From Polyangiales bacterium (GTDB taxonomy: Bacteria; Myxococcota_A; Polyangia; Polyangiales; Polyangiaceae), in the NCBI GenBank assembly GCA_038210445.1, contig JBBQWQ010000021.1, positions 53,681 to 117,680 on the forward strand: a stretch of 64,000 bases of DNA. Direction: 5' to 3'. Of the stretch, positions 1,383-30,655 are shown one piece after another. The number at the start of each line of letters is the position of its first letter. The stretch's first letter is position 1. Position numbers and translations under genes: made by a program. The notes below the pieces were generated by a model. It ran no database searches. It was given only the letters and a program-made list of their open reading frames with translations, and was not told the origin of the DNA.

Positions 1383-3173
<1,791 letters not shown>

Positions 3174-3917
3174 CGTCCATCGTCACCGGCGTGCCGTCGG
3201 CCGAAACCAGCCGAATCGGCAGCGCCACCACTTCGCCGACCACCACCAGGCCTGGCAAATCGCGGCGGTCGAGCGGGAGCTCCACCCCCGGCAAGTCGCC
3301 CAACGTTCCCCTCCAGGCCCAGGCCCGCGCGGTGTGCGCGCCCAGCACAATCGCCGCTGGCAGTGTTGCAGAGAACCCGTGAGCCAAGGCGGTTCGCGTG
3401 ATCTCGACGCGCCGTCCGAGCGCCATCATGAACACGTAGGTGAGCGCGGCATGCGGTCCCGCTTCGAGCACCGAGACGTAGCTCTGGGCGGGCTCGGCCG
3501 ACAGCACCACGAAGCCGGAGGCCACCCCTCGGTGCGACACCGGGATGCCGAAGGCGCCGGGGCCGGCGATGGCGCTGCTGATGCCAGGAACGATGTCGAC
3601 TTCCAGCCCGGCCGCCGCCAGGGCCAGGGCCTCTTCGCCGCCGCGCCCGAACACGAAAGGGTCACCACACTTGAGGCGCACCACCCGGCGACCGGCGCGC
3701 GCCGCGCGCACCATGAGCGCCGAGATCTCCTCTTGGGTGATGGAAGGCCGCCCGGCGCGCTTGCCCACGTAGAACCGCGAAGCGGTCCCCGCTAGCTCCA
3801 GCACCCGCGGGTCCACCAGGGCGTCGTACAAGACGAGATCGCACGAGCCGAGAGCCCGCGCAGCGCGAACCGTGAGCAGATCAGGATCGCCCGGACCCGC
3901 TCCCACCAGCGTGACTT

Positions 3918-4508
3918 TCATGGGACCTCCCAAACGCGTTCTTCGCGTGCACCATACACTTTTTCCAGCGCCCGAAACAGCAGGTGGCGACGTTCACCGA
4001 AGGGCACCTGCGCCTCCTTCCACCGCGCGCGCTCGAGCCTCGCGAGGTCGAGCCAGCCGCCCAGCTCCTGGGGCAGCACGCTCTCGAGCGCCTCACGCAG
4101 CAGGCGCACCAACGCCGGCGCGTGCCCACCGGTGGAGATAGCGAAGGTGACGCCGCCGCGCTCCACCCGCGCTGCGCCGAACGCGGTGGCCGACGCCAGA
4201 TCGTCCACCGCCACCACGAAGCGGGCCTCGGCATCGCAGGCCTGCCGCACCGCCCGGTTCACCTCGGGCGTGGCCGCCGCCACCACGAACCAAGCGCCGT
4301 GCACGTCGGCGGGAACGAAGGCGCGCTCCGCCAGCGATACGCCGAGCTGGCGAAAGGCAGGCAGGCTCTCCGGCGCCACCACGTCCACCCGAGCGCCCGC
4401 CCGGAGCAGGAGCTCGGCCTTCTCCAGCGCCACCGGGCCGCCGCCCACCAAGAGAATGCGGCGTCCCGAGAGCTTGAGAAAGAGGGGCATGAGCTGGGGC
4501 TCGTTCAT
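3918..4508 (-). CDS. precorrin-2 dehydrogenase / sirohydrochlorin ferrochelatase (CysG N-terminal/SirC/Met8-like)
   Basis: The real start is ATG 4508 (MNEPQLMPLFLKLSGRRILLVGGGPVALEKA), a Rossmann GxGxxA motif typical of siroheme synthase N-domains. The 128 codons upstream in the listed ORF are Arg-rich frame artefact. The stop overlaps the cobA start (ATGA), and the start overlaps the cysH stop (ATGA). Confidence 0.7.
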   Translation of the reverse strand: MNEPQLMPLFLKLSGRRILLVGGGPVALEKAELLLRAGARVDVVAPESLPAFRQLGVSLAERAFVPADVHGAWFVVAAATPEVNRAVRQACDAEARFVVAVDDLASATAFGAARVERGGVTFAISTGGHAPALVRLLREALESVLPQELGGWLDLARLERARWKEAQVPFGERRHLLFRALEKVYGAREERVWEVP

Positions 4509-5236
4509 GGGGCTCCTGTGGCCTGGCGCGCGGGGTGAGAAGGGTGCAGTCCACACTCTTTTTGATCGGGGCTTTCCCAGTAAAAACGGCCCGCGCGCAC
4601 GTCGTCGTCGGGGCCAATGGCGCGGGTGCACGGGGCGCAGCCGATGGATCGAAAGCCCTGGCCGTGGAGCGGATTGAGCGGCACATCGTGTGCGCGCGCG
4701 TAGTCGAAGACATCGGCCTCCGACCAGGCGGCGAGGGGCGCGACCTTCACGATGTCGCCATGGGCTGCGTCGACCTCGAAGGTGGCCAGGCCGCCTCGGG
4801 TCACTGCCTGGTCGCGCCGGAGCCCGGTGATCCACGCGCCGCGGCCAGCGAGCGCGCGGCCCAGCTGCTGCACCTTGCGCACGTCGCAGCACGCCTTCCG
4901 TGCCTCGACCGATCCGCGAAAGCCCAGGACACCCTGCGTACGCACCAGGCGCTCGACCAGGGGCGCCGAAGGGAAATAGACCGCAATCGGCACGGCATAG
5001 CGCGCCTGCGCCTCGGCCAACAGGGCGTAGGTCTCCTCGTGCAGGCGTCCGGTATCGAGGAAGAAGACGTGCGGCAGGGCGAGACCATGCTCCCGGTGGA
5101 GATGCGCGACCTCGCGCAGGAGCACCATGTCCTCGGCGCCCAGGCTGGTGGCCACGGCGAGCGTGCCCCCGAAAGACTCCATGGCCCAGCGAATGACCTC
5201 GCGCGCGGCGGCGCCTTCGGGCGGACGCGGGCTCAC
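4505..5236 (-). CDS. cysH: adenylylsulfate (APS)/PAPS reductase, thioredoxin-dependent, Fe-S type
   Basis: PAPS_reduct-family core (EVIRWAMESFGGTLAVATSLGAEDMVLL) plus the C-terminal motifs KACCDVRKV and IGCAPCTRA. GTG 5236 gives 243 aa, matching the length of characterised CysH proteins. It overlaps the upstream PQ-loop ORF stop as GTGA. Confidence 0.8.
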   Translation of the reverse strand: MSPRPPEGAAAREVIRWAMESFGGTLAVATSLGAEDMVLLREVAHLHREHGLALPHVFFLDTGRLHEETYALLAEAQARYAVPIAVYFPSAPLVERLVRTQGVLGFRGSVEARKACCDVRKVQQLGRALAGRGAWITGLRRDQAVTRGGLATFEVDAAHGDIVKVAPLAAWSEADVFDYARAHDVPLNPLHGQGFRSIGCAPCTRAIGPDDDVRAGRFYWESPDQKECGLHPSHPARQATGAP

Positions 5237-5574
5237 GACGAGGCTCCGGAGAGCGGGGTCATCGCCGGCACCCGGGGCGCAGACACCTCGAGCTCGCGGT
5301 ATACGCGGCGAGCGCGGTGACGGTACCAGAGCACCTGGGTGAGCAGCACCGCGCGCAGGGCGATGCCGAGCACCAGCCCAGCGACGAACATGTGCTCGTT
5401 CTTCGAGGCGGAATACACCAGCGCGCAAACGCGCCCCAGAAGGTTGAGGCCGGGGAAGAACAGGCTCACATCCTCCGATCGCTTCAGCCGATAGAGGCGC
5501 GCGATCTGCGGAAGGTAGGAGCCTTCGATGGCCAGGAGACCGATGCTGCCGAAGAGCCAGTTGATATCCGTCAT
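5233..5574 (-). CDS. small 3-TM PQ-loop (SemiSWEET/MtN3-like or LAB_N-like) membrane protein
   Basis: 113 aa with three hydrophobic segments and a PQ motif after TM1 (GSYLPQIARLYRLKRS). ATG 5574 has a purine-rich GAGAAGAAG upstream. The stop overlaps the GTG start of cysH. Confidence 0.55.
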   Translation of the reverse strand: MTDINWLFGSIGLLAIEGSYLPQIARLYRLKRSEDVSLFFPGLNLLGRVCALVYSASKNEHMFVAGLVLGIALRAVLLTQVLWYRHRARRVYRELEVSAPRVPAMTPLSGASS

Positions 5575-5626
5575 AACGACTTCTTCTCAGATAGCAGACG
5601 AGTTTCCGTTATGCTAGATATTCGGA

Positions 5627-6544
5627 GTGACCCGATCATCGCCTTCTTCGCCCACCCATCTTCGTGCCCTCGAGGACGAAGCCATCTTCGTATTCCGCGA
5701 GATCTGCGCCGAGCGCGAGCGCCCGGCCCTTCTGTTCTCCGCCGGGAAGGACTCGCTGGTGCTGCTGCGACTGGCGGAGAAAGCGTTCCGTCCGGCGCGC
5801 TTCCCCTTCCCGCTCCTGCACGTAGACACCGGTCACAACTTTCCCGAAGCCATCGCGTTTCGCGATCGCAGGGTAGCCGAGCTGGGAGAGCGCCTGATCG
5901 TCGCGTCGGTAGAAACGTCCATCGCCCAGGGCCGGGTGACCGAAGAGACCGGACCGCGCGCGTCGCGCAATCGCCTGCAGACGGTGACGTTGCTCGACGC
6001 CATCGCCGAGCATGGCATCGACGCAGCGTTCGGCGGCGCCCGACGCGACGAAGAACGCGCCCGGGCCAAGGAGCGGGTCATCAGCTTTCGCGACGAGGCC
6101 GGCCAGTGGGACCCCAAGAACCAGCGGCCCGAGCTGTGGGACCTGTACAACACCGACGTTCGGCGCGGTGAGCACCTGCGGGCCTTCCCCCTCTCCAACT
6201 GGACCGAGCTCGATGTGTGGGAGTACATCCGGCACGAACAGCTGGAAGTGCCCTCCATCTACTTTGCCCACCAGCGCGAGGTGTTCTCGCGCGACGGCAT
6301 GCTGTACGCCACCTCGGCATTCGTCACCCGCTCGGCGCGTGAGGTGCCGTTCCGCGAGACCGTGCGCTTCCGCACCGTGGGCGATATGAGCTGCACCGGC
6401 GCCGTACGCAGCACCGCGCGAACGCTCGACGCCATCATCGACGAAGTGGTCTCCGCCACCGTCACCGAGCGCGGCGCCACCCGGGCCGACGACAAGTTCA
6501 CCGAGGCTTCGATGGAAGACCGCAAACGCGAGGGATACTTCTGA
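5627..6544 (+). CDS. cysD: sulfate adenylyltransferase subunit 2
   Basis: 305 aa. THLRALEDEAIFVFREI aligns with the CysD N-terminus, and the PAPS_reduct-like core is present (LLFSAGKDSLVLL). Confidence 0.9.
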   Translation: MTRSSPSSPTHLRALEDEAIFVFREICAERERPALLFSAGKDSLVLLRLAEKAFRPARFPFPLLHVDTGHNFPEAIAFRDRRVAELGERLIVASVETSIAQGRVTEETGPRASRNRLQTVTLLDAIAEHGIDAAFGGARRDEERARAKERVISFRDEAGQWDPKNQRPELWDLYNTDVRRGEHLRAFPLSNWTELDVWEYIRHEQLEVPSIYFAHQREVFSRDGMLYATSAFVTRSAREVPFRETVRFRTVGDMSCTGAVRSTARTLDAIIDEVVSATVTERGATRADDKFTEASMEDRKREGYF

Positions 6545-20541: not shown

Positions 20542-21471
20542 TCAGAAGCGAATGGTCGCGAAGGCCTCGACTTTGCGGGGTCGGCTCGGTGCCAGGAGCA
20601 GCGAAACGATGCCCGAAGCCAGCGTCACCGCCGCGCCAACGACGAACGCGGTGGCGAAGTTGCCGTAGGTGATCGCGCGATCGAGGCGGTCGAGACCGGC
20701 TTGCCTGCACGAGGCTACCCCGCACTCCTCGCGGCGCGCGGTGTCGTTCTCCACCTTCGCCGCCACGCCGAAGGTGATGGCTCCGACGGTGGCGACGCCG
20801 GAGCTGACGAGCAGGCCGATGCCCACGGGAACGAGGATGCTGCGTCGGCCGGAATGCGGCGCAAAACCAGGGGCCTCCGTCGGCGGACGCAGCTCCGGCA
20901 CCCGGACGCGCACCTCGCGCCGCTGCACCTCCACCCGCACGTGCCACGGAGTCGTTCCCGGCGCCTCTGCAGACACCTCGTGGGCACCGGTGTCCACCGG
21001 GAGCCGCATGCCCCAGGCGGCCTTGCCGAGGTCGAGCCCGTCCTGTCGGATCACCATTCCCGACGCCGGGCTGGGTACCTCGATGATCAGGTACGAGAGC
21101 CTGGGCTCAAGCTCGGCGATCTTGCTGGTGGCATGCTCTGCGCGGCGCACTTGGCCCAAGCGTGACGCCAATACCTGCATCTCGTGATAACGCACCCAGG
21201 CGCTGGCAAAGCGTCTCGTCGCCTCATAGCACTCGGCGAGGTTGAAGAGCGTCCCCGGCGCAACATCGAGGCGCGCGCTCTCCGCGAACTTGGGGCAGGC
21301 CTCCGCGGCGCGCCCCTGGTCCATCAGCGCGCGGCCTTCCTGAAAGAGCTGCTCGGCCATGGCCTTGCCGGCGTCCTCGCCGCCAAGGGGTTCGTCGGCC
21401 GACGCACGGCCAGCGAAGAGCATCGAGGTAGCGAGGAAGCACGCGGCGAGATGATGAGAACCGAGGACCAT
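20542..21471 (-). CDS. secreted TPR-like repeat protein with C-terminal TM segment
   Basis: ATG 21471 with a signal peptide (MVLGSHHLAACFLATSMLFAGRASA), helical repeats and a C-terminal hydrophobic segment. It lies 46 bp downstream of the sigma-54 activator on the same strand. Confidence 0.55.
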   Translation of the reverse strand: MVLGSHHLAACFLATSMLFAGRASADEPLGGEDAGKAMAEQLFQEGRALMDQGRAAEACPKFAESARLDVAPGTLFNLAECYEATRRFASAWVRYHEMQVLASRLGQVRRAEHATSKIAELEPRLSYLIIEVPSPASGMVIRQDGLDLGKAAWGMRLPVDTGAHEVSAEAPGTTPWHVRVEVQRREVRVRVPELRPPTEAPGFAPHSGRRSILVPVGIGLLVSSGVATVGAITFGVAAKVENDTARREECGVASCRQAGLDRLDRAITYGNFATAFVVGAAVTLASGIVSLLLAPSRPRKVEAFATIRF

Positions 21472-21517
21472 GGGGTCGGCCCTCAGCCTACCACCAGGCC
21501 TCGCGCTGCGTCGTCGT

Positions 21518-22834
21518 TCAGCGCAGAGGCGGAATACCGTGCTTGGCCTTGAGCCGATGAAAGTAGCGCCGCGCGATGCCGGACGCGCCGGCGGCCCTCG
21601 ACACGTTCCCACCGTGCACCGCGAGGATCTTGAGCAGATACCGGCGGTCGAACTCTTCGCCGAGGAGCGTGCGCGCTTGTACCAGCGGCAGATCGGCGGC
21701 CAGGAGCCGCTCGGCGATCTCGCCGATCTTCGCCTTGGCATCGTCGCGAAAGGTGGCCTCCGGGTCCACCGCATCGCTGCCGGTGGTGGCGAGCTTCACC
21801 ACCGTGCGCTGCAGCTCGCGCACGTTGCCCGGCCACCGGTAGAACTCGAAGCGACGGAGCGTCATCGGCGAAAGTACCGCGTCGCCCACGTCGAGCCCTC
21901 GCCAGAAGAAGTCGGCGAGGAGCTTGAGATCGCCCTCGCGCACCCGCAGCGGAGGCAGCTCCACCCGCGCTCGCGCAAGGATGCCGGCCAGACCCTCGAG
22001 CACGCGTCCACGCTCCACGTCGAGGTCGAGATCGCGTCGCGAGCTGCCGACCAGGCGCACGTCGAAGGTGGGGAGCACCACCCGGTCGGCGCGCTCCACC
22101 GGCCTGCGCTCCAGGAACGCCAACAAGCGCTCCTGCGACTCGCGCGGCAGATCGCCGAGGTCCTTCAGCAGCAGTGTGCCGCCGTCGGCCCGTTCCAGCT
22201 GGCCCGGCGATCCCTTGGTGCCGAAGAGCCGTGCGTCGACGTCGGGCTCGGTGGCGTCGCAAACCACGAAGGGCCCGTCGGGTCGTGGACCTTGCTCGTG
22301 AAGGACCTCCGCCAAGAGCTCCTTACCGGTGCCGGCCTCGCCCTCCACCAGCGCCGGCGCGCGCGAGGCGGCCAGCTGCGCCAGCAACGGATACAGCCGA
22401 CGCATCACCGGGCTGCCGCCGAGGACCCGTCCGAAGCTTCCCTGCTTGCCGAGCCCGCTGCCGTCGGGTGTGTCGCTCACCGCCTCGGCCATGAGCACCG
22501 TGCCACCGATGCGAATCTGCGCGCTCTCGTTCATCTCGGCCTGGAACACCCGAAGCCCCGACACCACGACGCCGTTGGTGGACTCGAGATCGTCGATGCG
22601 AAGCGCGCCGCCCGAGACCGTGGCGGCGAAGTGCCGACGCGATACCGAGCGATCGCGGAGGCGCAGCGCGCAGGCCTCGCTCGTGCCCACCAGGTAGCGC
22701 GTCTCGGGTCCCACCACCAGGAGCGAAGCTCCGGCATCGGGGCCCGAGATCACGTGAAGCTTGAAGGCGACGTCGCCGATGCCCTTGCGTCGCGGCAGCG
22801 ATTCGGTTCCCGGGTCGTGCTTGGGCTCCGCCAT
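21518..22834 (-). CDS. sigma-54-dependent transcriptional activator with N-terminal FHA domain
   Basis: ATG 22834. FHA domain (YLVGTSEACALRLRDRSVSRRHF...STNG). Sigma-54 AAA+ domain (GEAGTGKELLA, GAFTGA-like region, ESELFGH-type GTLLLKDLGDL). C-terminal HTH. Confidence 0.85.
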   Translation of the reverse strand: MAEPKHDPGTESLPRRKGIGDVAFKLHVISGPDAGASLLVVGPETRYLVGTSEACALRLRDRSVSRRHFAATVSGGALRIDDLESTNGVVVSGLRVFQAEMNESAQIRIGGTVLMAEAVSDTPDGSGLGKQGSFGRVLGGSPVMRRLYPLLAQLAASRAPALVEGEAGTGKELLAEVLHEQGPRPDGPFVVCDATEPDVDARLFGTKGSPGQLERADGGTLLLKDLGDLPRESQERLLAFLERRPVERADRVVLPTFDVRLVGSSRRDLDLDVERGRVLEGLAGILARARVELPPLRVREGDLKLLADFFWRGLDVGDAVLSPMTLRRFEFYRWPGNVRELQRTVVKLATTGSDAVDPEATFRDDAKAKIGEIAERLLAADLPLVQARTLLGEEFDRRYLLKILAVHGGNVSRAAGASGIARRYFHRLKAKHGIPPLR

Positions 22835-22921
22835 AACGCTTCGAGGAGAGCGCGACCCGAGGGATATTGCAATGGGACGTGGCGGCGCCGGCGAAGTGAT
22901 AGCCTTTGCTGGCGCGCCGTG

Positions 22922-24379
22922 ATGCCTGCTCAATCCGACGATAGCTCGACCCGCGAAGGCGGCACTCTGCCCGGCGGCGCCGTGGCCGCGGTGGGCGAGC
23001 GCGTGGGTCGCTACCGGCTGTTCCGCCCCATCGCCTCGGGAGGTATGGGCACCGTGTACCTGGGCTGGCTCGAGAGCGACGGCGGCGTGACGCGTCCCAT
23101 CGCCGCCAAGGTGATGCACGCGCAGGGGCCCGCGGCGGAGCGATTGACGCCCATGGCCCTCACCGAGGCGCGCATCGCGTCGCGCATCCGGCACCCCAAC
23201 GTGGTGAGCCTCACCGACGTGGTGACCGGCGTTCGAGGCCCGGTGCTCATCCTCGAGTACGTCGCCGGCGATTCGCTCTCGCACCTGCTCGAGGCGAGCT
23301 CCCATGCGGTCCCCTGGCCGGTGGTGGTGCGCGTCATGGTCGACGTGCTCGAAGGGCTCCACGCGGCGCACGAGGCCACCAACGAGAGCGGGTTGCCACT
23401 CTCGGTAGTGCACCGCGACGTCTCGCCCCACAACGTGCTCGTCGACGAAGCGGGCATAGCGAAGATCGCCGACTTCGGCGTCGCCAAGGCCCTGGAGCGC
23501 GCTTACACGACGGAGTCCGGCGAGGTGCGCGGCAAGCTGGCCTACATGGCGCCGGAGCAGCTCGACGGAAAGGTGGTCGATCGCCGGGCCGACGTGTGGG
23601 GCGCCGGCATGGTGCTCTGGCAGATGCTGGCGGGCACCCGCCCCTTCGCCGGCCTCGACGTGGGCCCAACCATGAAGCGCATCGCGACCGGCGCGGTGGA
23701 CGATCCGACCACCGTACGCGATTGTCCGGAGGCCCTCGCCCGGGTGTGCTTGCGCGCCGTCTCCACCGATCTCGACGCGCGCTACGCGACCGCTCGCCTC
23801 ATGGCCATCGATCTGGAGCGGGCGCTGGCGCCCGCCTCGCACCGGGACGTCGGTCGCTGGGTGAAGCGAACTGCCGGCAGCGAGCTGGCCGCACGGGCCG
23901 CGCTGGTGAAGGAGATGGAGAGCCTGGCGCTTCGCGAGCGGAGCGGCGCGGTGCCACGACCCGCCGTGCAAGCTCCCGCGTCAGCGGCGCCGTGGGCATC
24001 GACTATCAGCGTCGGTACGGGCCGGGCTCGTCCGCTCGCGCTCCGCTGGGCGATGCTGGGCACGGGGCTCCTGGCGATCGCTGCAAGCGTGGCGGTGGCC
24101 GCGCGCGGGATGCGTTCTTACGACCCCGGTACGCCCTCGGCGGCAGCCTCGTCCGCGAGCTCGCCGGCAGGCCCAACGGCGCACGCCGCACCCACGTCGC
24201 AACCGGAGCGCCCCGCGCCGCCGGACCCGGGTTTGCGTGCGGGGGTCGTCCCCTCCACGCGGCCAACGTCGCGTACCTGGCCGCCGCGGGTGACGCCCAC
24301 CGCATCGGCCACTGCGACAGCATCGGCCACGCCGGCTCCCACCGCCGCCGATACCCTCGGACGCAACCAGCGTAACTGA
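22922..24379 (+). CDS. Ser/Thr protein kinase with TM segment and Pro/Ala-rich C-terminal tail
   Basis: Hanks kinase motifs (GGMGTVYLG, AAKV, HRDVSPHNVL, DFG, APE). The N-terminal 480 codons of the listed 969-aa ORF are antisense to the activator gene and are rejected. Confidence 0.85.
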   Translation: MPAQSDDSSTREGGTLPGGAVAAVGERVGRYRLFRPIASGGMGTVYLGWLESDGGVTRPIAAKVMHAQGPAAERLTPMALTEARIASRIRHPNVVSLTDVVTGVRGPVLILEYVAGDSLSHLLEASSHAVPWPVVVRVMVDVLEGLHAAHEATNESGLPLSVVHRDVSPHNVLVDEAGIAKIADFGVAKALERAYTTESGEVRGKLAYMAPEQLDGKVVDRRADVWGAGMVLWQMLAGTRPFAGLDVGPTMKRIATGAVDDPTTVRDCPEALARVCLRAVSTDLDARYATARLMAIDLERALAPASHRDVGRWVKRTAGSELAARAALVKEMESLALRERSGAVPRPAVQAPASAAPWASTISVGTGRARPLALRWAMLGTGLLAIAASVAVAARGMRSYDPGTPSAAASSASSPAGPTAHAAPTSQPERPAPPDPGLRAGVVPSTRPTSRTWPPRVTPTASATATASATPAPTAADTLGRNQRN

Positions 24380-24390
24380 CGCCAATCTGG

Positions 24391-25572
24391 CTACGGCTTT
24401 GCCAGGCGCAACACGCCGCCGCCGTAGAGGCCGACGTAGATGGCCTGGTCGTCGACCTCGATGTCCTGCACGCGATCGAGGTTCGTGAGCAGGGTGGTGG
24501 CCTGGGTGCAGCCCGCGATTGGGCACGCGTACACGCCGCCGGTGAGCGTGCCTTCGTTGCCCTGGGTTCCCCAGTACACCGTGGTGTCGTCGGCGGTGAC
24601 GCAGTTGGGGAGCACCGCGGCGTTGAAGTAGGCAGTCTGGCTCGTGACGTCGGCGGTGTCGGCGCTGCGCACGAAGCCAGGATTGTCTTTCAGATCGCCG
24701 GCGGTCCAGAACACCCGGCCGCGGCGCACCGCAACGCCGCCGCTGATGGCCGAGCCGCGCGCCTCGCCCACCGGGGTTGCCCCTCCCAACCCGGAGAGCG
24801 GAGCCCGGAAGAGGGAGTTGAGGATGGACTTGTAGTATACATACGTATCGTCCACCGCCAGCTTGAAGGGTCGCCCTGCGGTGGCCAGTGGCACCGCGTT
24901 CGCGCCGTCCCATCGCGAGACGGTGCTGCCCCCGTACTCGGCGAACACGAACGTGTCGCCGGTCCGCGCGCCGGTCAGCACCACGTCGCTGATCTCCGGG
25001 ATGGCAATGACACGGCTCGGCGAGCCGGCGCACCCCTCCTTGGGGCAGCGGTACACGCCGCCGCCAGCGGCGCTCGTATCGCCGGAAGCCCACACCACGA
25101 GCGCGCCACCCACATCGATGCCCCACGCCGCGGTGGTGGTGCCCAACGTCTTGGCGTCGGTGCCGTCCTTCTTCACCCGGCTCACCGCACCCGAGGCGTA
25201 TGATGTAAAATACACGTAATCGCCTTCGAGGGCCACGCCGCGTACGTCGGAGGCAGCCCCGATGCGAACCGGCTGGCACTTTCCGCCGGCGCACGTGCCA
25301 CCGAGGCAGGAGTGGCCACAGCGGCCGCAGTTCTGGTCGTCGCTATCGCGGGCCGGCGCTCCCTCCACGCACGCCTCTGCGTCGGGAGAGCCCGCTTCGC
25401 CGGTGCCCACCTCGACCGGCGCGCCATCCGAGGCCGCATCCGAGGCCGGGTCGAGCGGTGGCTTCTCAATGCCCAGCACCTGGACGCACGCGAAGGAAAC
25501 AGGGAGGCACGCGAGCGCGAGGACCGCGCGACCGGCCACCCTGCGGCGCCACTTTTCCGTTCGATCAGACAT
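24391..25572 (-). CDS. secreted Cys-rich/beta-propeller-like protein of unknown function
   Basis: ATG 25572 with a signal peptide. It carries a CGRCGHSCLGGTCAGGKC module and repeated VY(W/F) strand motifs. Confidence 0.55.
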   Translation of the reverse strand: MSDRTEKWRRRVAGRAVLALACLPVSFACVQVLGIEKPPLDPASDAASDGAPVEVGTGEAGSPDAEACVEGAPARDSDDQNCGRCGHSCLGGTCAGGKCQPVRIGAASDVRGVALEGDYVYFTSYASGAVSRVKKDGTDAKTLGTTTAAWGIDVGGALVVWASGDTSAAGGGVYRCPKEGCAGSPSRVIAIPEISDVVLTGARTGDTFVFAEYGGSTVSRWDGANAVPLATAGRPFKLAVDDTYVYYKSILNSLFRAPLSGLGGATPVGEARGSAISGGVAVRRGRVFWTAGDLKDNPGFVRSADTADVTSQTAYFNAAVLPNCVTADDTTVYWGTQGNEGTLTGGVYACPIAGCTQATTLLTNLDRVQDIEVDDQAIYVGLYGGGVLRLAKP

Positions 25573-25940
25573 GAGCTCCGCTCCCAGCAAACCCTAGCCC
25601 TCCCTTTTGCGCAAGCTAGCCTACGCCGCAGCAAGGAGCGGACCATCGGCGGGTAGCGCGCACACGTACGCGAAGAGCCAACGTGTCATCCCCGGTCTTC
25701 ACGCGCGGCGCGCGCCTGTAGCTCGAAGAAGCCAGGGGTATCCCGCGCGAACCCTGGAACCAAGAGCGAAGCTTCGTCGTGACCGCGACCGGGCACGGCG
25801 AGCTCTCGAGGTCCCTATTCGCCGATCCTCCGAATGGGTCGCCCCACCGGGACCTGGCGGCCCCAGCCGCGAGCTTCGGCGCCAATTGGCCAGATTTGCA
25901 CCATCCGGCGGGCGGCTCGACGATTGCTCATGTCCCTTTC

Positions 25941-26579: not shown

Positions 26580-26629
26580 CCGGCACCGCGAAATTCGCCC
26601 CCGCTCGGTGGCCCCGGTAAGCTTACCGG

Positions 26630-27082
26630 GTGATCCCCCGACTGCAGAGCGCCGCGACCCTTCTCGCCCTCGCCACCACCGCTGCGCCCGATATCCTCTC
26701 CTGGGGCCGCCTCAAGGAGACCCTCCGCGACACGGTTGACGCAGACCCCATGGACGCGGCGCTCGGCTTCATCGGCACCGCATCGCTCCTCTTCTACGTG
26801 GCCGAGAAGGGGGAGAACCCCAAGGTCGAGACCCTGGGCGATGCCTTCGTGTTCATCTCCACCTGCATGTCTGTGGGCTACTCCGACATCTTCGCGCGCA
26901 CCGAGGCCGGCAAGGCGGTCGCGACGCTGGTCATGACCTACGGCCCCGCGCTCAGCGCCAACATCCTGCGCAAGGGGCCGGAAGATACGCGCATCGTCCA
27001 GCGGCTCGACAAGCTCATCGAAGCGCTCACCCCTGCCAGCGCAAGCGCCGGCGCCGACGGCACCGTCCCCGGCTCCCGCTGA
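26630..27082 (+). CDS. two-TM pore-loop cation channel (KcsA-like fold) with variant GYS selectivity filter
   Basis: 150 aa with TM1, a pore helix, the filter CMSVGYSD and TM2 (a TVGYGD-like signature with Gly replaced by Ser). Confidence 0.6.
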   Translation: MIPRLQSAATLLALATTAAPDILSWGRLKETLRDTVDADPMDAALGFIGTASLLFYVAEKGENPKVETLGDAFVFISTCMSVGYSDIFARTEAGKAVATLVMTYGPALSANILRKGPEDTRIVQRLDKLIEALTPASASAGADGTVPGSR

Positions 27083-27861
27083 TGGCCGGCCTCCTCGCTC
27101 TGCTCGTGGGCTATCCGGCGGTGGTGTACACCGTGGCCCTCGGCGTGGTGCTCGTCTACTGGTTGTTCGTGGTGCTGGGCGCCGTGCACATCGACACCAG
27201 CCACGCCGACGGCGCGCTCGAGGGCGCCCTCGACGGCGGCGACGTGGGTGACGTGGGCGGCGGCCACCATGGCGACGTGGGCGGCGATCATGGCGGCGGC
27301 GACGTGGGCGACGCAGGCGACGGCGACGCGGGTGGCGATCATGCCGGCGAAGGCGATACGCCCGGCGGGTCGGTCAACATGTTGGCCGCGCTCAAGCTCC
27401 GCTCGGTGCCGGCCACGGTGAGCCTCAGCTTCATCATTCTGTTCGCCTGGATCATCGCCGTCATGGGGATGAACTGGGCGAGTCACGCATTCCCCGGCCT
27501 CTCCACCGCGCTGCTGGGCACCGCCATTCTCCTCCTGGCGCCCCTGCTGGCGCTCCCGCTCACGTCGCTTGCCATCCGTCCGCTGGCGCCGCTCTTCAAG
27601 CACCGCACGGCGACCCGGCAAAAGGAGCTGGTGGGAAAGATCTGCGTGGTGCGCACCGGCACCGTCGACGACACCTTCGGCGAAGCCACCCTCGAAGACG
27701 GCGGCGCTGGGCTGGTGGTGCGCGTGCGCATCGACGCCGGCGAAACACTGAAGCGCGGCGAGCAGGCGGTCATCGTGGGGTTCGACGAGGAGAAAGACGC
27801 CTTCCTGGTGGCGCCCATGTCGGCGGCCGAGCTCGATCCGCCGCCGCGGGCGCGCAAGTAA
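27082..27861 (+). CDS. NfeD/YqiJ-like membrane protein with C-terminal OB-fold and His/Asp/Gly-rich linker
   Basis: The start overlaps the channel stop (TGATG). N-terminal TM segment, a (GDVG/GDHGG)n linker, further TM segments and an NfeD-type OB-fold (GKICVVRTGTVDDTFGEATLEDGGAGLVVRVRI...GEQAVIVGFDEEKDAFLVAP). Confidence 0.6.
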   Translation: MAGLLALLVGYPAVVYTVALGVVLVYWLFVVLGAVHIDTSHADGALEGALDGGDVGDVGGGHHGDVGGDHGGGDVGDAGDGDAGGDHAGEGDTPGGSVNMLAALKLRSVPATVSLSFIILFAWIIAVMGMNWASHAFPGLSTALLGTAILLLAPLLALPLTSLAIRPLAPLFKHRTATRQKELVGKICVVRTGTVDDTFGEATLEDGGAGLVVRVRIDAGETLKRGEQAVIVGFDEEKDAFLVAPMSAAELDPPPRARK

Positions 27862-27869
27862 CCGGGACT

Positions 27870-28832
27870 TCAGCGCGGGGGCGGCGGCAAATCGCGGCAG
27901 GCGGTACCGAACTTGTCGATGGCCTCCTTGAGGCTCTTCGAGAGATCGCCGTCGCAGATGCTGCTGAACACCGCGTTCTTGCCGGTTGCGGTGACGAAGT
28001 CGCCGAGGCGCTTGGCCTCGGCCGCGGAGCCGAACGTCGAGGTGCAGCTGGACTTGCCCGCGATCACCGCGGTGGCCCAGCGCGCGCGATCGCCGGTGAG
28101 CCCGTCGAGCATGGCCACGAAGTCCTGGGGCTTCTCCGCGCCTTTGAGGTCGCTGCACACGTCGCCAAAGCCTTCGTCGAGGTCTTTGGCGGCGTAAGAG
28201 CAGTCGTCTTCGTCGGTGAGGAAGACGATGGCGAGGAGCGCATCTTTGCGCAGGAAGCCGGCGTTGGTGCCGTCGGCGACGCGATCGGTGAGCGCCATCT
28301 TCATGCACTGGAGCGGCATCTCCTCGGAGGGGCCGTCGGTGCCCACGGTGGCCCGGCAACCGAACGACGCCGCAGCCTCGCCGCGGTCGAGCCAGCGCTT
28401 GGCGCCGCCGCAGTTGTTTCGGAACGCGCCGTCGTCGCCCTTCACGTCGTCTACCGTGATGCCGAAAGGCCCCTTGAGCTTGTACGACTTGCCGGTGGTG
28501 GTGACGGCGACGCGGTAGTCGAGCGGACCATTGGGGCCGCGGGTGGCGTCGAGGACGCTCACGAACTTGGGAAAGTTGGCGGCGAGGTTGGTCTGCTCCT
28601 CGGACATGCTGCCCGAGTTGTCGACCACGAACAGGATGTCCATCTTGTTGCACCCAGCGCCGCTATCACTGCCGCCGCCGCCGCCGTCGCCGGTGGGAAA
28701 GTCGAGGCCGTTCCCGCGCGCATCGCCGCCCGCATCGGCGCCGTCCTCGAACGTTGCGGTACCCGCGGCGCCGCAGGCCACCGAGACGACCGCGAGAGAG
28801 GCGAAGAGAGCAAGACCGAGGACGCGCTTCAT
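27870..28832 (-). CDS. von Willebrand factor A (VWA) domain lipoprotein
   Basis: ATG 28832 with a lipoprotein signal (MKRVLGLALFASLAVVSVACG). MIDAS motif ILFVVDNSGSMS. Confidence 0.75.
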   Translation of the reverse strand: MKRVLGLALFASLAVVSVACGAAGTATFEDGADAGGDARGNGLDFPTGDGGGGGSDSGAGCNKMDILFVVDNSGSMSEEQTNLAANFPKFVSVLDATRGPNGPLDYRVAVTTTGKSYKLKGPFGITVDDVKGDDGAFRNNCGGAKRWLDRGEAAASFGCRATVGTDGPSEEMPLQCMKMALTDRVADGTNAGFLRKDALLAIVFLTDEDDCSYAAKDLDEGFGDVCSDLKGAEKPQDFVAMLDGLTGDRARWATAVIAGKSSCTSTFGSAAEAKRLGDFVTATGKNAVFSSICDGDLSKSLKEAIDKFGTACRDLPPPPR

Positions 28833-28943
28833 GGCGGGAGTTTGCGAGGAAGGCCCTGCGATCGCCACCTGCATTTGGCAACCCAGCGCCTATTTTTATG
28901 GCGTTCGGTGCGCTTTCCCGAGCGCACCGAGGGTCGCGCGCGC

Positions 28944-29621
28944 TCAGCCGGGCGGCGGATAGTGCGTCGCCACGCACTCGAAGCGATGGCTGGCAGCCAC
29001 GTAGTCGCACACCCGTGACGGCGCACCCGGCGCGTTGCCGGATCCGCAGTCGCCGTCATCGGCGCAGGTGTCGCGCGAGGTGCGGCAGAACGAGCCTGCC
29101 GGCGGATGAAGCCGCCCGCCGGACATCCCCGCCAGGCCGCACACGTAGCCCGTCTCGCAGTCGGCGTTGCTCCGGCAGTTGTAGGGAATGCACGCGTTGC
29201 GGCCATCGGCGGCGCCGCCGCAGAAGCAACCGGTGCCCGCGGCGCAGTCGGCGTCCTTCTCGCACGCGTCGGCGGTGCACGCCTTGTGCGACATGCCGTG
29301 CCCCATGTACACGCTCCTGCAGCGCGGGTTCTTGCCTTTGGTGCATTCTGCATCTTTCTCGCAGGCATTGCTGGCCCCCGGGTGCAGCGGCTCCGGAGGC
29401 ACCGGCGACTGGGTATCGGTGGGCGGCACGATGCATTTGCCGTTCACCTGCGCGTAGAGCATTCCCAGCGCCGGCGGCGGCGCCTTCTCGCGCGCGCTCG
29501 CGGCGGAGGCGGAGGCGGTGGCCTTCGCCGAGGGCACGCTGCCCGGCTCCACATCGCCCACGCTCTTGCGACAACCGACAGAGAGAGCGAAGAGAAGAAG
29601 CGCGGAGCGCAGGCGGTGCAT
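28944..29621 (-). CDS. lipoprotein with myxobacterial-type Cys-rich repeats
   Basis: Lipobox LSVGC. More than 20 Cys with repeated CxxDA[DE]C units (CEKDAEC, CEKDADC, CRSNADC, CADDGDC). Confidence 0.6.
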   Translation of the reverse strand: MHRLRSALLLFALSVGCRKSVGDVEPGSVPSAKATASASAASAREKAPPPALGMLYAQVNGKCIVPPTDTQSPVPPEPLHPGASNACEKDAECTKGKNPRCRSVYMGHGMSHKACTADACEKDADCAAGTGCFCGGAADGRNACIPYNCRSNADCETGYVCGLAGMSGGRLHPPAGSFCRTSRDTCADDGDCGSGNAPGAPSRVCDYVAASHRFECVATHYPPPG

Positions 29622-29815
29622 GGCGCCAGCGTAGAGGAGATTGGTGTTGTTCGCCGATACCTTCGGGATTCCTTCGCCTCCCGTCGCTGACCTTCCGAAA
29701 TATGCGGCTGCCCATCTACGTGGATGCGGCAGCGGGAGACGGGATCGCGTTCAGCAAGGGGGGCCTCGCTAGGCAGAGCGCTCGGAAGACCCCGCAGATG
29801 GCGAGGACGCGATCG

Positions 29816-30655
29816 CTATTCGTCGACGATGACCGCGTCTCGCACCCCCGCCGCCGCGAGCAGGCCTTCCACGAGCCTGCGCAGCTTCTCGGGGTCGGTC
29901 GTCGCGACGTGGACGTCGACCCGCCCTTCGCCTGCGCCCGCGCTGATGATCTCGCCGAGCCCGCTCGCGCCGATCTTGTCCTCGAGCGCGTGCCTCGCGC
30001 GGAGCTCGCCGCTCGTGGGCAGCTCTGCGCCAGCGATGGAATACTGGATATGGACCTGCTTGCGCGAGCGCTTGCGCGGCCACTTCGCGAGCACCTCGCG
30101 GGTGCGCACGCGCGACCGATCCTCCAGGTCGACCAGCTCTGCTTCGGAGAAGTCCTTCCGCCAGCGGGCGTGGCGCGGATAGGGCGGCACGGTGTGCCCG
30201 GGAAGCAAGCGCTTGTCGATGTGCTTGGGGTCGCCGTAGTGGTCCCAGGGAAAGATTCCCCAGTAGCACTCGAGCTCCCCCTGCGTCATGAATCCCGTCG
30301 AGGAGGCGCCGTTCAACCCGAACGGGGTGAGATGACGGGCCACGTCGAAATTGTCGTACGAACGAAACGGACGATGACCCACCGCGTGCCATGCGCCATA
30401 CCGGATCATGTCATCGGTCGGCGATACGACCATCATCGGTGACGTCGGATCCGTGATGAGGTCGACCGCGAGGGACAGCACCGCCCCCGGTTCGAGCCTG
30501 CATGCGAAGAACGCGACGGCGATCTGCGCGATCGATCCCGATCGGTCGAGCTCGATCGCGCCGGCCAGCTGTCCGAGCGCGGCGCTGCCGTCGAGCAACG
30601 GCACCGCGAGGATGGTGCCGACAGGGGGAAGGCTGGTCTTGCGAGTTTTCGTCAT
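29816..30655 (-). CDS. hypothetical cytoplasmic protein (279 aa)
   Basis: Diverse composition with no signal peptide or TM segment. No family recognised. Confidence 0.45.
   Translation of the reverse strand: MTKTRKTSLPPVGTILAVPLLDGSAALGQLAGAIELDRSGSIAQIAVAFFACRLEPGAVLSLAVDLITDPTSPMMVVSPTDDMIRYGAWHAVGHRPFRSYDNFDVARHLTPFGLNGASSTGFMTQGELECYWGIFPWDHYGDPKHIDKRLLPGHTVPPYPRHARWRKDFSEAELVDLEDRSRVRTREVLAKWPRKRSRKQVHIQYSIAGAELPTSGELRARHALEDKIGASGLGEIISAGAGEGRVDVHVATTDPEKLRRLVEGLLAAAGVRDAVIVDE

Follow-up and report, generated by a model that had tools for sequence, protein, structure and literature searches.

Does a potassium-channel-like gene that overlaps a gene for an NfeD-type membrane protein belong to a flotillin system, or does it only lie close to one? 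The question is posed by a 64,000-nt, G+C-rich stretch of a Polyangiales bacterium contig (JBBQWQ010000021.1 of assembly GCA_038210445.1; hereafter the window), whose nearest relatives are Polyangiaceae metagenome-assembled genomes (MAGs) with 92% protein identity. Here the TGA of a 150-aa channel gene (27080-27082) and the ATG of an NfeD-like gene (27082-27084) have one base in common, and a flotillin gene lies 3 kb away on the same strand (Table 1). A first-pass annotation had pointed out the TGATG overlap, which can be read directly in the sequence, as well as the nearby flotillin gene, and had proposed a microdomain-associated channel module. Comparative genomics supports this proposal: the channel gene, the NfeD-like gene and the flotillin gene are contiguous on one strand in many relatives, and the flotillin gene 3 kb away therefore belongs to the same module, split in the window by three opposite-strand genes. 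The membership proposed at that time was correct for these three genes but incomplete, because a fourth conserved gene, encoding a DUF3686/AAA+ ATPase, had been missed. Judging from the sequence comparisons presented below, we lean, if not strongly, towards a four-gene membrane module (channel, NfeD2/YqiJ-type protein, YqiK-type flotillin and AAA+ ATPase) in which the channel would serve the flotillin as its dedicated client or effector. The role and the clients of bacterial flotillins and NfeD proteins are still debated, and a large number of indirect clients have been proposed; with its coupling to nfeD and its persistence beside flotillin through rearrangements, a small channel gene provides a concrete, testable client-scaffold pair, and its carriers include cultured strains such as Labilithrix luteola DSM 27648 (locus L016) and Minicystis rosea DSM 24000 (locus L045).

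Linkage of the four genes in related genomes

Loci were collected with two anchors. The channel-anchored set covers GTDB genomes of 80 species, every one of them from Myxococcota (Polyangiaceae, Labilithrix, Sandaracinaceae, Minicystis, Nannocystis and Sorangium), and neighbourhood genes were detected on stop-to-stop open reading frames (ORFs). The suffix W denotes the paralogue type of the window, and C a more YqiJK-like paralogue. The channel gene stands beside NfeD-like, flotillin or AAA+ genes in 66 of the 80 species. The order channel > NfeD-W > flotillin-W > AAA+ on one strand is found in about 20 species, NfeD-W > flotillin-W > AAA+ divergent from the channel in about 16, and NfeD-C > flotillin-C > channel in 29, while a single species (locus L079) has the AAA+ gene as the immediate upstream neighbour of the channel gene, and in the others the channel is alone within 6 kb. 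For the NfeD-anchored set, 80 metagenome loci were retrieved with a profile of the NfeD-like protein, and 65 of them are informative, meaning that a channel was detected or that at least 600 nt of DNA was present 5' of the NfeD-like gene; in 60 of these 65, the channel gene is directly upstream or divergent. Where the two genes are co-directional, the channel stop overlaps the NfeD start in 52 of 62 pairs (by 1 nt in 4, by 4 nt, as ATGA or GTGA, in 33, and by 8 nt in 15). In a neighbour-joining tree of the channels, which is a crude one, the leaves group by context type, that is, by the NfeD/flotillin paralogue that they adjoin. The linkage is strong, reciprocal and rearrangement-resistant, and in these data the module is limited to Polyangia-type myxobacteria.

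These results also bear on what the first-pass annotation had said about the gene pair. It had named three findings that would speak against its proposal, namely a channel ORF without conservation, a filter variant at an error-prone site, and an NfeD-like gene that does not co-occur with the channel elsewhere; we found the channel to be conserved, the filter variant to be a family trait, and the NfeD-like gene to co-occur with the channel. Its view that an NfeD-channel pair departs from the usual NfeD-flotillin partnership needs a correction: the pair does not replace the partnership, and the channel is an addition to it.

In the type-C modules (L045 of Minicystis rosea, 2840-6414, and L004, for example), the genes are ordered NfeD > flotillin > channel with 4 nt from the flotillin stop to the channel start, the channel has the filter SVGYAD or, less often, SVGYDD, and no AAA+ gene was detected within the locus. 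In 45 related loci, a homologue of the ATPase gene accompanies the module; it nearly always comes right after the W-type flotillin gene, and once, in L079, it is immediately upstream of the channel gene. NfeD-W and flotillin-W repeatedly lie 1-3 kb apart in other loci as well, which indicates that this junction tolerates insertions and that the channel-NfeD junction does not.

The channel and its partner proteins

The product of the first gene had been read as a KcsA-like channel with an SVGYSD filter, and this reading is sound. The protein matches Pfam Ion_trans_2 (PF07885) with 30.2 bits against a gathering score of 22.5 (E 4e-7), and a profile of 74 family members finds among PDB sequences the KvAP pore (E 4e-9) as well as KCNQ2 and, at about 1e-6, KcsA. 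Its AlphaFold2 model (predicted local distance difference test score, pLDDT, 85.8) has the fold first transmembrane helix (TM1)-pore helix-filter loop-TM2, with N-terminal helices at residues 3-18 and 25-38, TM1 at 40-59, the pore helix at 69-81, the filter at 81-86, TM2 at 92-110 with a hinge at G105-P106, and a C-terminal helix at 120-133. When this model was compared with the PDB by Foldseek, all 50 of the 50 matches listed were K+-channel or closely related tetrameric cation-channel pores. The filter is conserved in 73 homologues with identities down to 35%, which rules out both a chance ORF and an artefact of sequencing; the start codon is also the one chosen by the gene callers in related assemblies. 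Positions D71, A72, T78, S81, V82, G83, Y84, D86, I87, T91, G94, G105 and P106 are invariant across the 73 homologues. The family is compact, with about 240 clusters at 50% identity: 239 representative clusters among 1.84 billion were found at E <= 1e-10, as compared with 1840 generic channel matches at E <= 1e-3.

The channel resembles KcsA in its fold and profile matches and in having two TM helices, a pore helix, a filter and a hinge glycine at KcsA-like spacing. G105 lies 22 residues past the filter glycine, the same spacing as that between G77 and G99 of KcsA, and the post-filter T and G-K align with KcsA. It differs from KcsA in its filter (S-V-G-Y-[S/A/C/D]-D instead of T-V-G-Y-G-D), in its linkage to NfeD and flotillin, in its pore helix, which is without the WW pair of KvAP and KcsA and, in the profile alignment, shorter by one residue, and in its inner helix, which is charged (R114 K115) about 8 residues past the hinge glycine. 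At the corresponding place, the inner helix of KcsA runs on to the bundle crossing. A bundle-crossing gate of the KcsA type is probably absent from the channel, and its control by partner proteins would then be plausible. The minimal viral Kcv channels are similar in their small size and short inner helix, and the protein is best described as a minimal, probably tetrameric, KcsA/Kcv-like cation pore.

The filter S-V-G-Y-S-D agrees with the T/S-x-G-Y/F-G signature at the first four positions and not at the fifth. Across the 74 channel sequences, five of the six filter residues (S81, V82, G83, Y84 and D86) never vary, and S85 shows at least 90% conservation. Serine occupies the fifth filter position in 93 of 141 channel genes from the fetched related loci, the others having mostly A (19-20), C (12-13), D (3) or G (1), and among 144 sequences that represent 50%-identity clusters the residues rank A > S > D, G > H > C, T by frequency; other or degenerate filters (SVGFSD, SVGYHE, NVGYAQ and ASGEAD) are rare in the fetched loci. 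As the variant is found throughout the family, a sequencing error is excluded. The alignments indicate that S-V-G-Y and the next acidic residue are constrained and that the 'second glycine' position is free to vary. In KcsA, sites S1-S4 are built by Thr/Ser, Val, Gly and Tyr, residues that are all retained here with Ser for Thr, and K+ permeation through the channel is plausible on this comparison. The replacement of the second glycine noticed at the outset is therefore real and family-wide, but the altered or non-K+ selectivity predicted from it is not decidable from sequence, given that the S1-S4 residues are kept and the substituted position is variable. A channel subfamily with a dispensable second filter glycine would be useful for studies of filter chemistry and minimal gating.

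The assignment of the downstream ORF to the NfeD family is also supported, by its fold, profile and paralogue. The full-length protein, which has more than 600 homologues, has no Pfam or NCBIfam match. Neither it nor four close homologues match PF01957 (NfeD), PF07290 (YqiJ_OB) or PF21001 (YqiJ_N) even at E <= 1 to 10, a BLASTP comparison with YqiJ of Escherichia coli is likewise negative, and its profile has nothing among PDB sequences except insignificant claudin and ZnT7 matches. By hhalign, the family aligns with E. coli YqiJ with a probability of 85.8% (E 5e-6) over TM2, TM3 and the OB-fold, and the C-terminal five-stranded OB-fold of the NfeD type is present. A paralogous 'type C' NfeD (e.g., Minicystis rosea L045 2840-3598) is similar both to this protein (1e-16) and to E. 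coli YqiJ (up to 1e-6), and type-C proteins match Pfam YqiJ_N with 29.6-40.9 bits against a gathering score of 23. Because of this fold, profile and paralogue, and because its gene directly adjoins the flotillin gene in many relatives, we regard the protein as a divergent NfeD2/YqiJ type.

The NfeD-like protein consists of TM1, an acidic loop, TM2, TM3 and the C-terminal OB-fold. The loop is predicted to be disordered (pLDDT < 50 at residues 52-95), is composed in 54 homologues of 31% G, 18% A, 18% D and 9% H, and contains 15 D+E and no K or R in the protein of the window. It is 46-103 aa long among homologues, and part of it is encoded by imperfect tandem DNA repeats at 27250-27349 (periods 24, 27 and 51); the length variation suggests that slippage has lengthened and shortened the loop. 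There are basic residues on the loop side of TM2 and after TM3, a positive-inside pattern that would place the loop and the OB-fold in the cytoplasm. By the same rule, the channel termini and the SPFH domain of the flotillin are also predicted to be cytoplasmic.

The flotillin consists of an N-terminal TM helix, an SPFH/Band_7 domain and a long coiled coil, and is 28% identical to E. coli YqiK over 429 residues (E 4e-34). At full length it has no NCBIfam match, and no Pfam match even at E <= 10, and the Flot domain (PF15975) was not detected in it, whereas residues 1-230 alone match Band_7 with 36 bits against a gathering score of 23.6. The full-length miss is probably caused by the long coiled coil setting off the HMMER bias filter, and similar flotillins may accordingly be under-annotated in databases. 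The ATPase gene begins 6 nt past the flotillin stop. Its 1853-aa product matches DUF3686 (610 bits), DUF7902 (71 bits) and AAA (33.6 bits) in Pfam and, at the C-terminus and under the cut-off, the PilZ-like TIGR02266 (36 bits); no recognisable protease domain was found by the Pfam scan. The family carries the Pfam name 'ATPase involved in DNA repair', which looks unfounded in view of its constant flotillin context, and no publication on DUF3686 was found in the literature searched, the coverage of which was incomplete. A defence-system reading of the module was considered and rejected, since the PADLOC models gave nothing meaningful for the module proteins except weak P-loop matches for the ATPase (E >= 0.0018).

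Possible role of the channel as a flotillin client

NfeD2-SPFH2 operons are known from E. coli (YqiJ-YqiK) and Bacillus subtilis (YuaF-FloT) (Hinderhofer et al. 2009, PMC2636767). Like these, the module encodes, beside a flotillin-like SPFH protein, a membrane protein of several helices that ends in an NfeD OB-fold, and the resemblance to YqiJ-YqiK extends to the sequence identity of the flotillin with YqiK and the YqiJ_N match of the type-C NfeD of related loci. Unlike yqiJK, which has no annotated channel gene beside it in E. coli K-12, the module has a channel gene coupled to the NfeD-like gene by the stop/start overlap, and its NfeD-like protein, unlike YqiJ, is too divergent for the Pfam models and has the long Gly/Asp/His loop. 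A comparative genomics study of the phage shock protein (PSP) system describes operons in which a Band-7/flotillin protein is encoded together with a YqiJ/YuaF 3TM protein and a novel AAA+-ATPase that has a large N-terminal region (bioRxiv 10.1101/2020.09.24.301986). The flotillin, the NfeD-like protein and the DUF3686/AAA+ ATPase of the window fit this description, from which alone we infer that the ATPase is of the same family. In contrast to the module, the operon is described in that study without an ion channel, and the K+ channel mentioned there is part of a separate operon tied to polyamine metabolism. What is new here is thus the channel added to a known NfeD-flotillin-AAA+ operon; the NfeD-flotillin pairing, the AAA+ extension and KcsA-like pores were already known. 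In the literature searched, again with incomplete coverage, we found neither a link between an ion channel and an NfeD-flotillin operon nor a description of this filter class.

NfeD binds and stabilises stomatin or flotillin/FloA (PMC2636767; PMC11222466), and in Staphylococcus aureus NfeD binds and stabilises the flotillin oligomer, which holds client membrane proteins (Ukleja et al. 2024, PMC11222466). We used this FloA-NfeD complex as a functional model of the module, with the difference that the clients there are many and mostly unfolded, whereas here the channel is one specific, genetically linked candidate client. Following this model, the channel and the NfeD-like protein would be produced in fixed proportion and would form a membrane complex, which the OB-fold would dock on the flotillin oligomer as in the case of NfeD with stomatin and FloA. 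The flotillin assembly would then confine, stabilise or gate the channel, its dedicated client or effector, and a cation flux, most likely of K+, would be coupled to the state of the membrane or envelope. More speculatively, gating may depend on the partners, given the short inner helix, and the acidic His-rich loop is a candidate for action at the cytoplasmic mouth or for cation binding. A still more specific picture, which we regard as possible rather than probable, is that of a gate-less mini K+-type pore held and gated in, or at the rim of, the flotillin oligomer via NfeD, with the Asp/His loop on the inner mouth and the AAA+ ATPase remodelling the assembly.

In animals, stomatin-family proteins are paired with ion channels that they regulate: MEC-2 with MEC-4/MEC-10, stomatin with ASICs, and podocin with TRPC6. 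The module likewise combines an SPFH protein with a cation channel, the functional coupling being purely conjectural here, and it differs from the animal systems, which use other channel families and have neither NfeD nor an operon. If a flotillin-controlled channel is confirmed, the module would be the first prokaryotic counterpart of the control of ion channels by animal SPFH proteins and a defined system to probe bacterial flotillin function.

Several observations weigh against the client reading. In 14 of the 80 channel-anchored species, the channel has no module within 6 kb, and 8 of these 14 channels form one clade with a different conserved context beside MgtE. Five of the 65 informative NfeD-anchored loci have no channel. 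All loci come from one phylum, mostly on MAG or metagenome contigs and from related taxa, and the counts are not phylogenetically independent. The four module genes are not a single transcript in the window, and the departure of the filter from T-x-G-Y-G makes conduction and K+ selectivity uncertain. Part of this can be accommodated by co-regulation without a complex, in which an ordinary small K+ channel gene would lie near NfeD-flotillin-AAA+ genes as a member of a shared response to osmotic, envelope or membrane-potential stress: the channel occurs elsewhere in those 14 species, with another downstream partner in the MgtE clade, the module forms two transcription units in the window, and operon membership alone does not prove contact. 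We take this explanation seriously but consider it unlikely, because the channel stop and NfeD start overlap so regularly, W-type NfeD rarely occurs without the channel, and the leaves of the channel tree group by the adjoining NfeD/flotillin paralogue type; such reciprocity of linkage is more typical of subunits than of members of a regulon.

The filter itself raises the question of whether the channel-like protein has lost conduction and serves the NfeD-flotillin assembly as a non-conducting scaffold, a small tetramer that would anchor the assembly in the membrane or nucleate it. The position of the second GYG glycine varies freely (S, A, C, D, H, T or G), the ASGEAD and NVGYAQ filters of a few members are degenerate, and the pore helix is shorter than that of KvAP and KcsA and without their WW pair. 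However, S-V-G-Y with the next D, the T and G-K past the filter, and G-P at the hinge stay (nearly) invariant over wide divergence, which is hard to explain without a functioning filter and gate, and the residues that form the KcsA sites S1-S4 are all retained, so that we give a scaffold rather little credence. By analogy with HflK/C-FtsH, the channel might instead be a quality-control substrate that is extracted or remodelled, not gated, by a flotillin/AAA+ machine. The AAA+ ATPase is a constant member of the module and is encoded directly upstream of the channel in L079, and SPFH cages around AAA+ proteases are known (PMC13220708). With no recognisable protease domain in the ATPase, and with type-C modules that retain channel, NfeD and flotillin without a detected AAA+ gene, this role seems improbable to us. 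The dedicated client or effector of the flotillin is the role that we prefer for the channel.

Layout of the locus in the window

The features of the module and the genes between its two parts are listed in Table 1. The channel/NfeD-like pair is parted from the flotillin and AAA+ genes by 3.1 kb with three opposite-strand genes (27870-30655). Two of these, encoding the VWA/MIDAS-adhesin-like protein and the Cys-rich probable lipoprotein, are at the same place in the nearest relatives L001 and L002, while the 279-aa ORF has no counterpart there and is therefore a recent insertion.

Table 1. Coordinates of the module and of the genes that interrupt it, in positions of the window
Feature	Position	Strand	Basis
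Channel gene, 2TM K+-channel-type pore subunit, 150 aa, GTG start	26630-27082	+	Pfam, profile, AlphaFold2 model, homologues
Selectivity-filter codons S81 V82 G83 Y84 S85 D86	26870-26887	+	Sequence and homologue alignment
TGATG stop/start overlap, channel gene/NfeD-like gene	27080-27084	+	Read from sequence
NfeD-like gene, divergent NfeD2/YqiJ-type membrane protein, 259 aa, ATG start	27082-27861	+	
Gly/Asp/His-rich acidic loop of NfeD-like protein, residues 36-101	27187-27384	+	pLDDT, composition
NfeD-type OB-fold domain of NfeD-like protein, residues 185-245	27634-27816	+	
VWA/MIDAS-adhesin-like protein gene	27870-28874	-	
Cys-rich probable lipoprotein gene	28944-29621	-	
279-aa ORF	29816-30655	-	
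YqiK-type flotillin, 675 aa	30977-33004	+	Band_7 match, YqiK alignment
DUF3686 + DUF7902 + AAA+ ATPase, 1853 aa	33010-38571	+	Pfam

The MgtE clade of channels without the module (loci L005, L007, L011, L015, L017, L018, L031 and L054; also L084-L086) has moved away from the flotillin genes, and its channel gene is part of another conserved cassette, with a divergent MgtE gene upstream and, downstream, genes for a TM protein of about 250 aa with CxxC motifs, an IgGFc_binding-domain protein and a TIG-domain protein. The 248-aa product of the gene that follows the channel gene was considered as a divergent NfeD and rejected (hhalign probability 0.2%), being a TM and Cys-rich protein instead, and the 672-aa protein after it was ruled out as a flotillin.

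Four close relatives share about 60 nt of conserved sequence 5' of the channel start, including relatives with a different upstream gene. Immediately before the GTG start of the channel gene, at 26614-26629, there is a perfect 16-bp palindrome, CCGGTAAGCTTACCGG. It has two or three mismatches in close relatives, and about one such palindrome is expected by chance per 64 kb; as it is not intact in these relatives, it is probably not a conserved element and was dropped as a regulatory candidate. Further upstream, a long ORF at 21470-24379 (+) encodes a protein that by eye looks like a Ser/Thr protein kinase in its C-terminal part, which is followed by a Pro/Ala-rich tail, and beside it a 399-aa secreted protein without a family match is encoded at 24391-25590 (-). 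These two ORFs are neighbours of the module in the closest relatives only.

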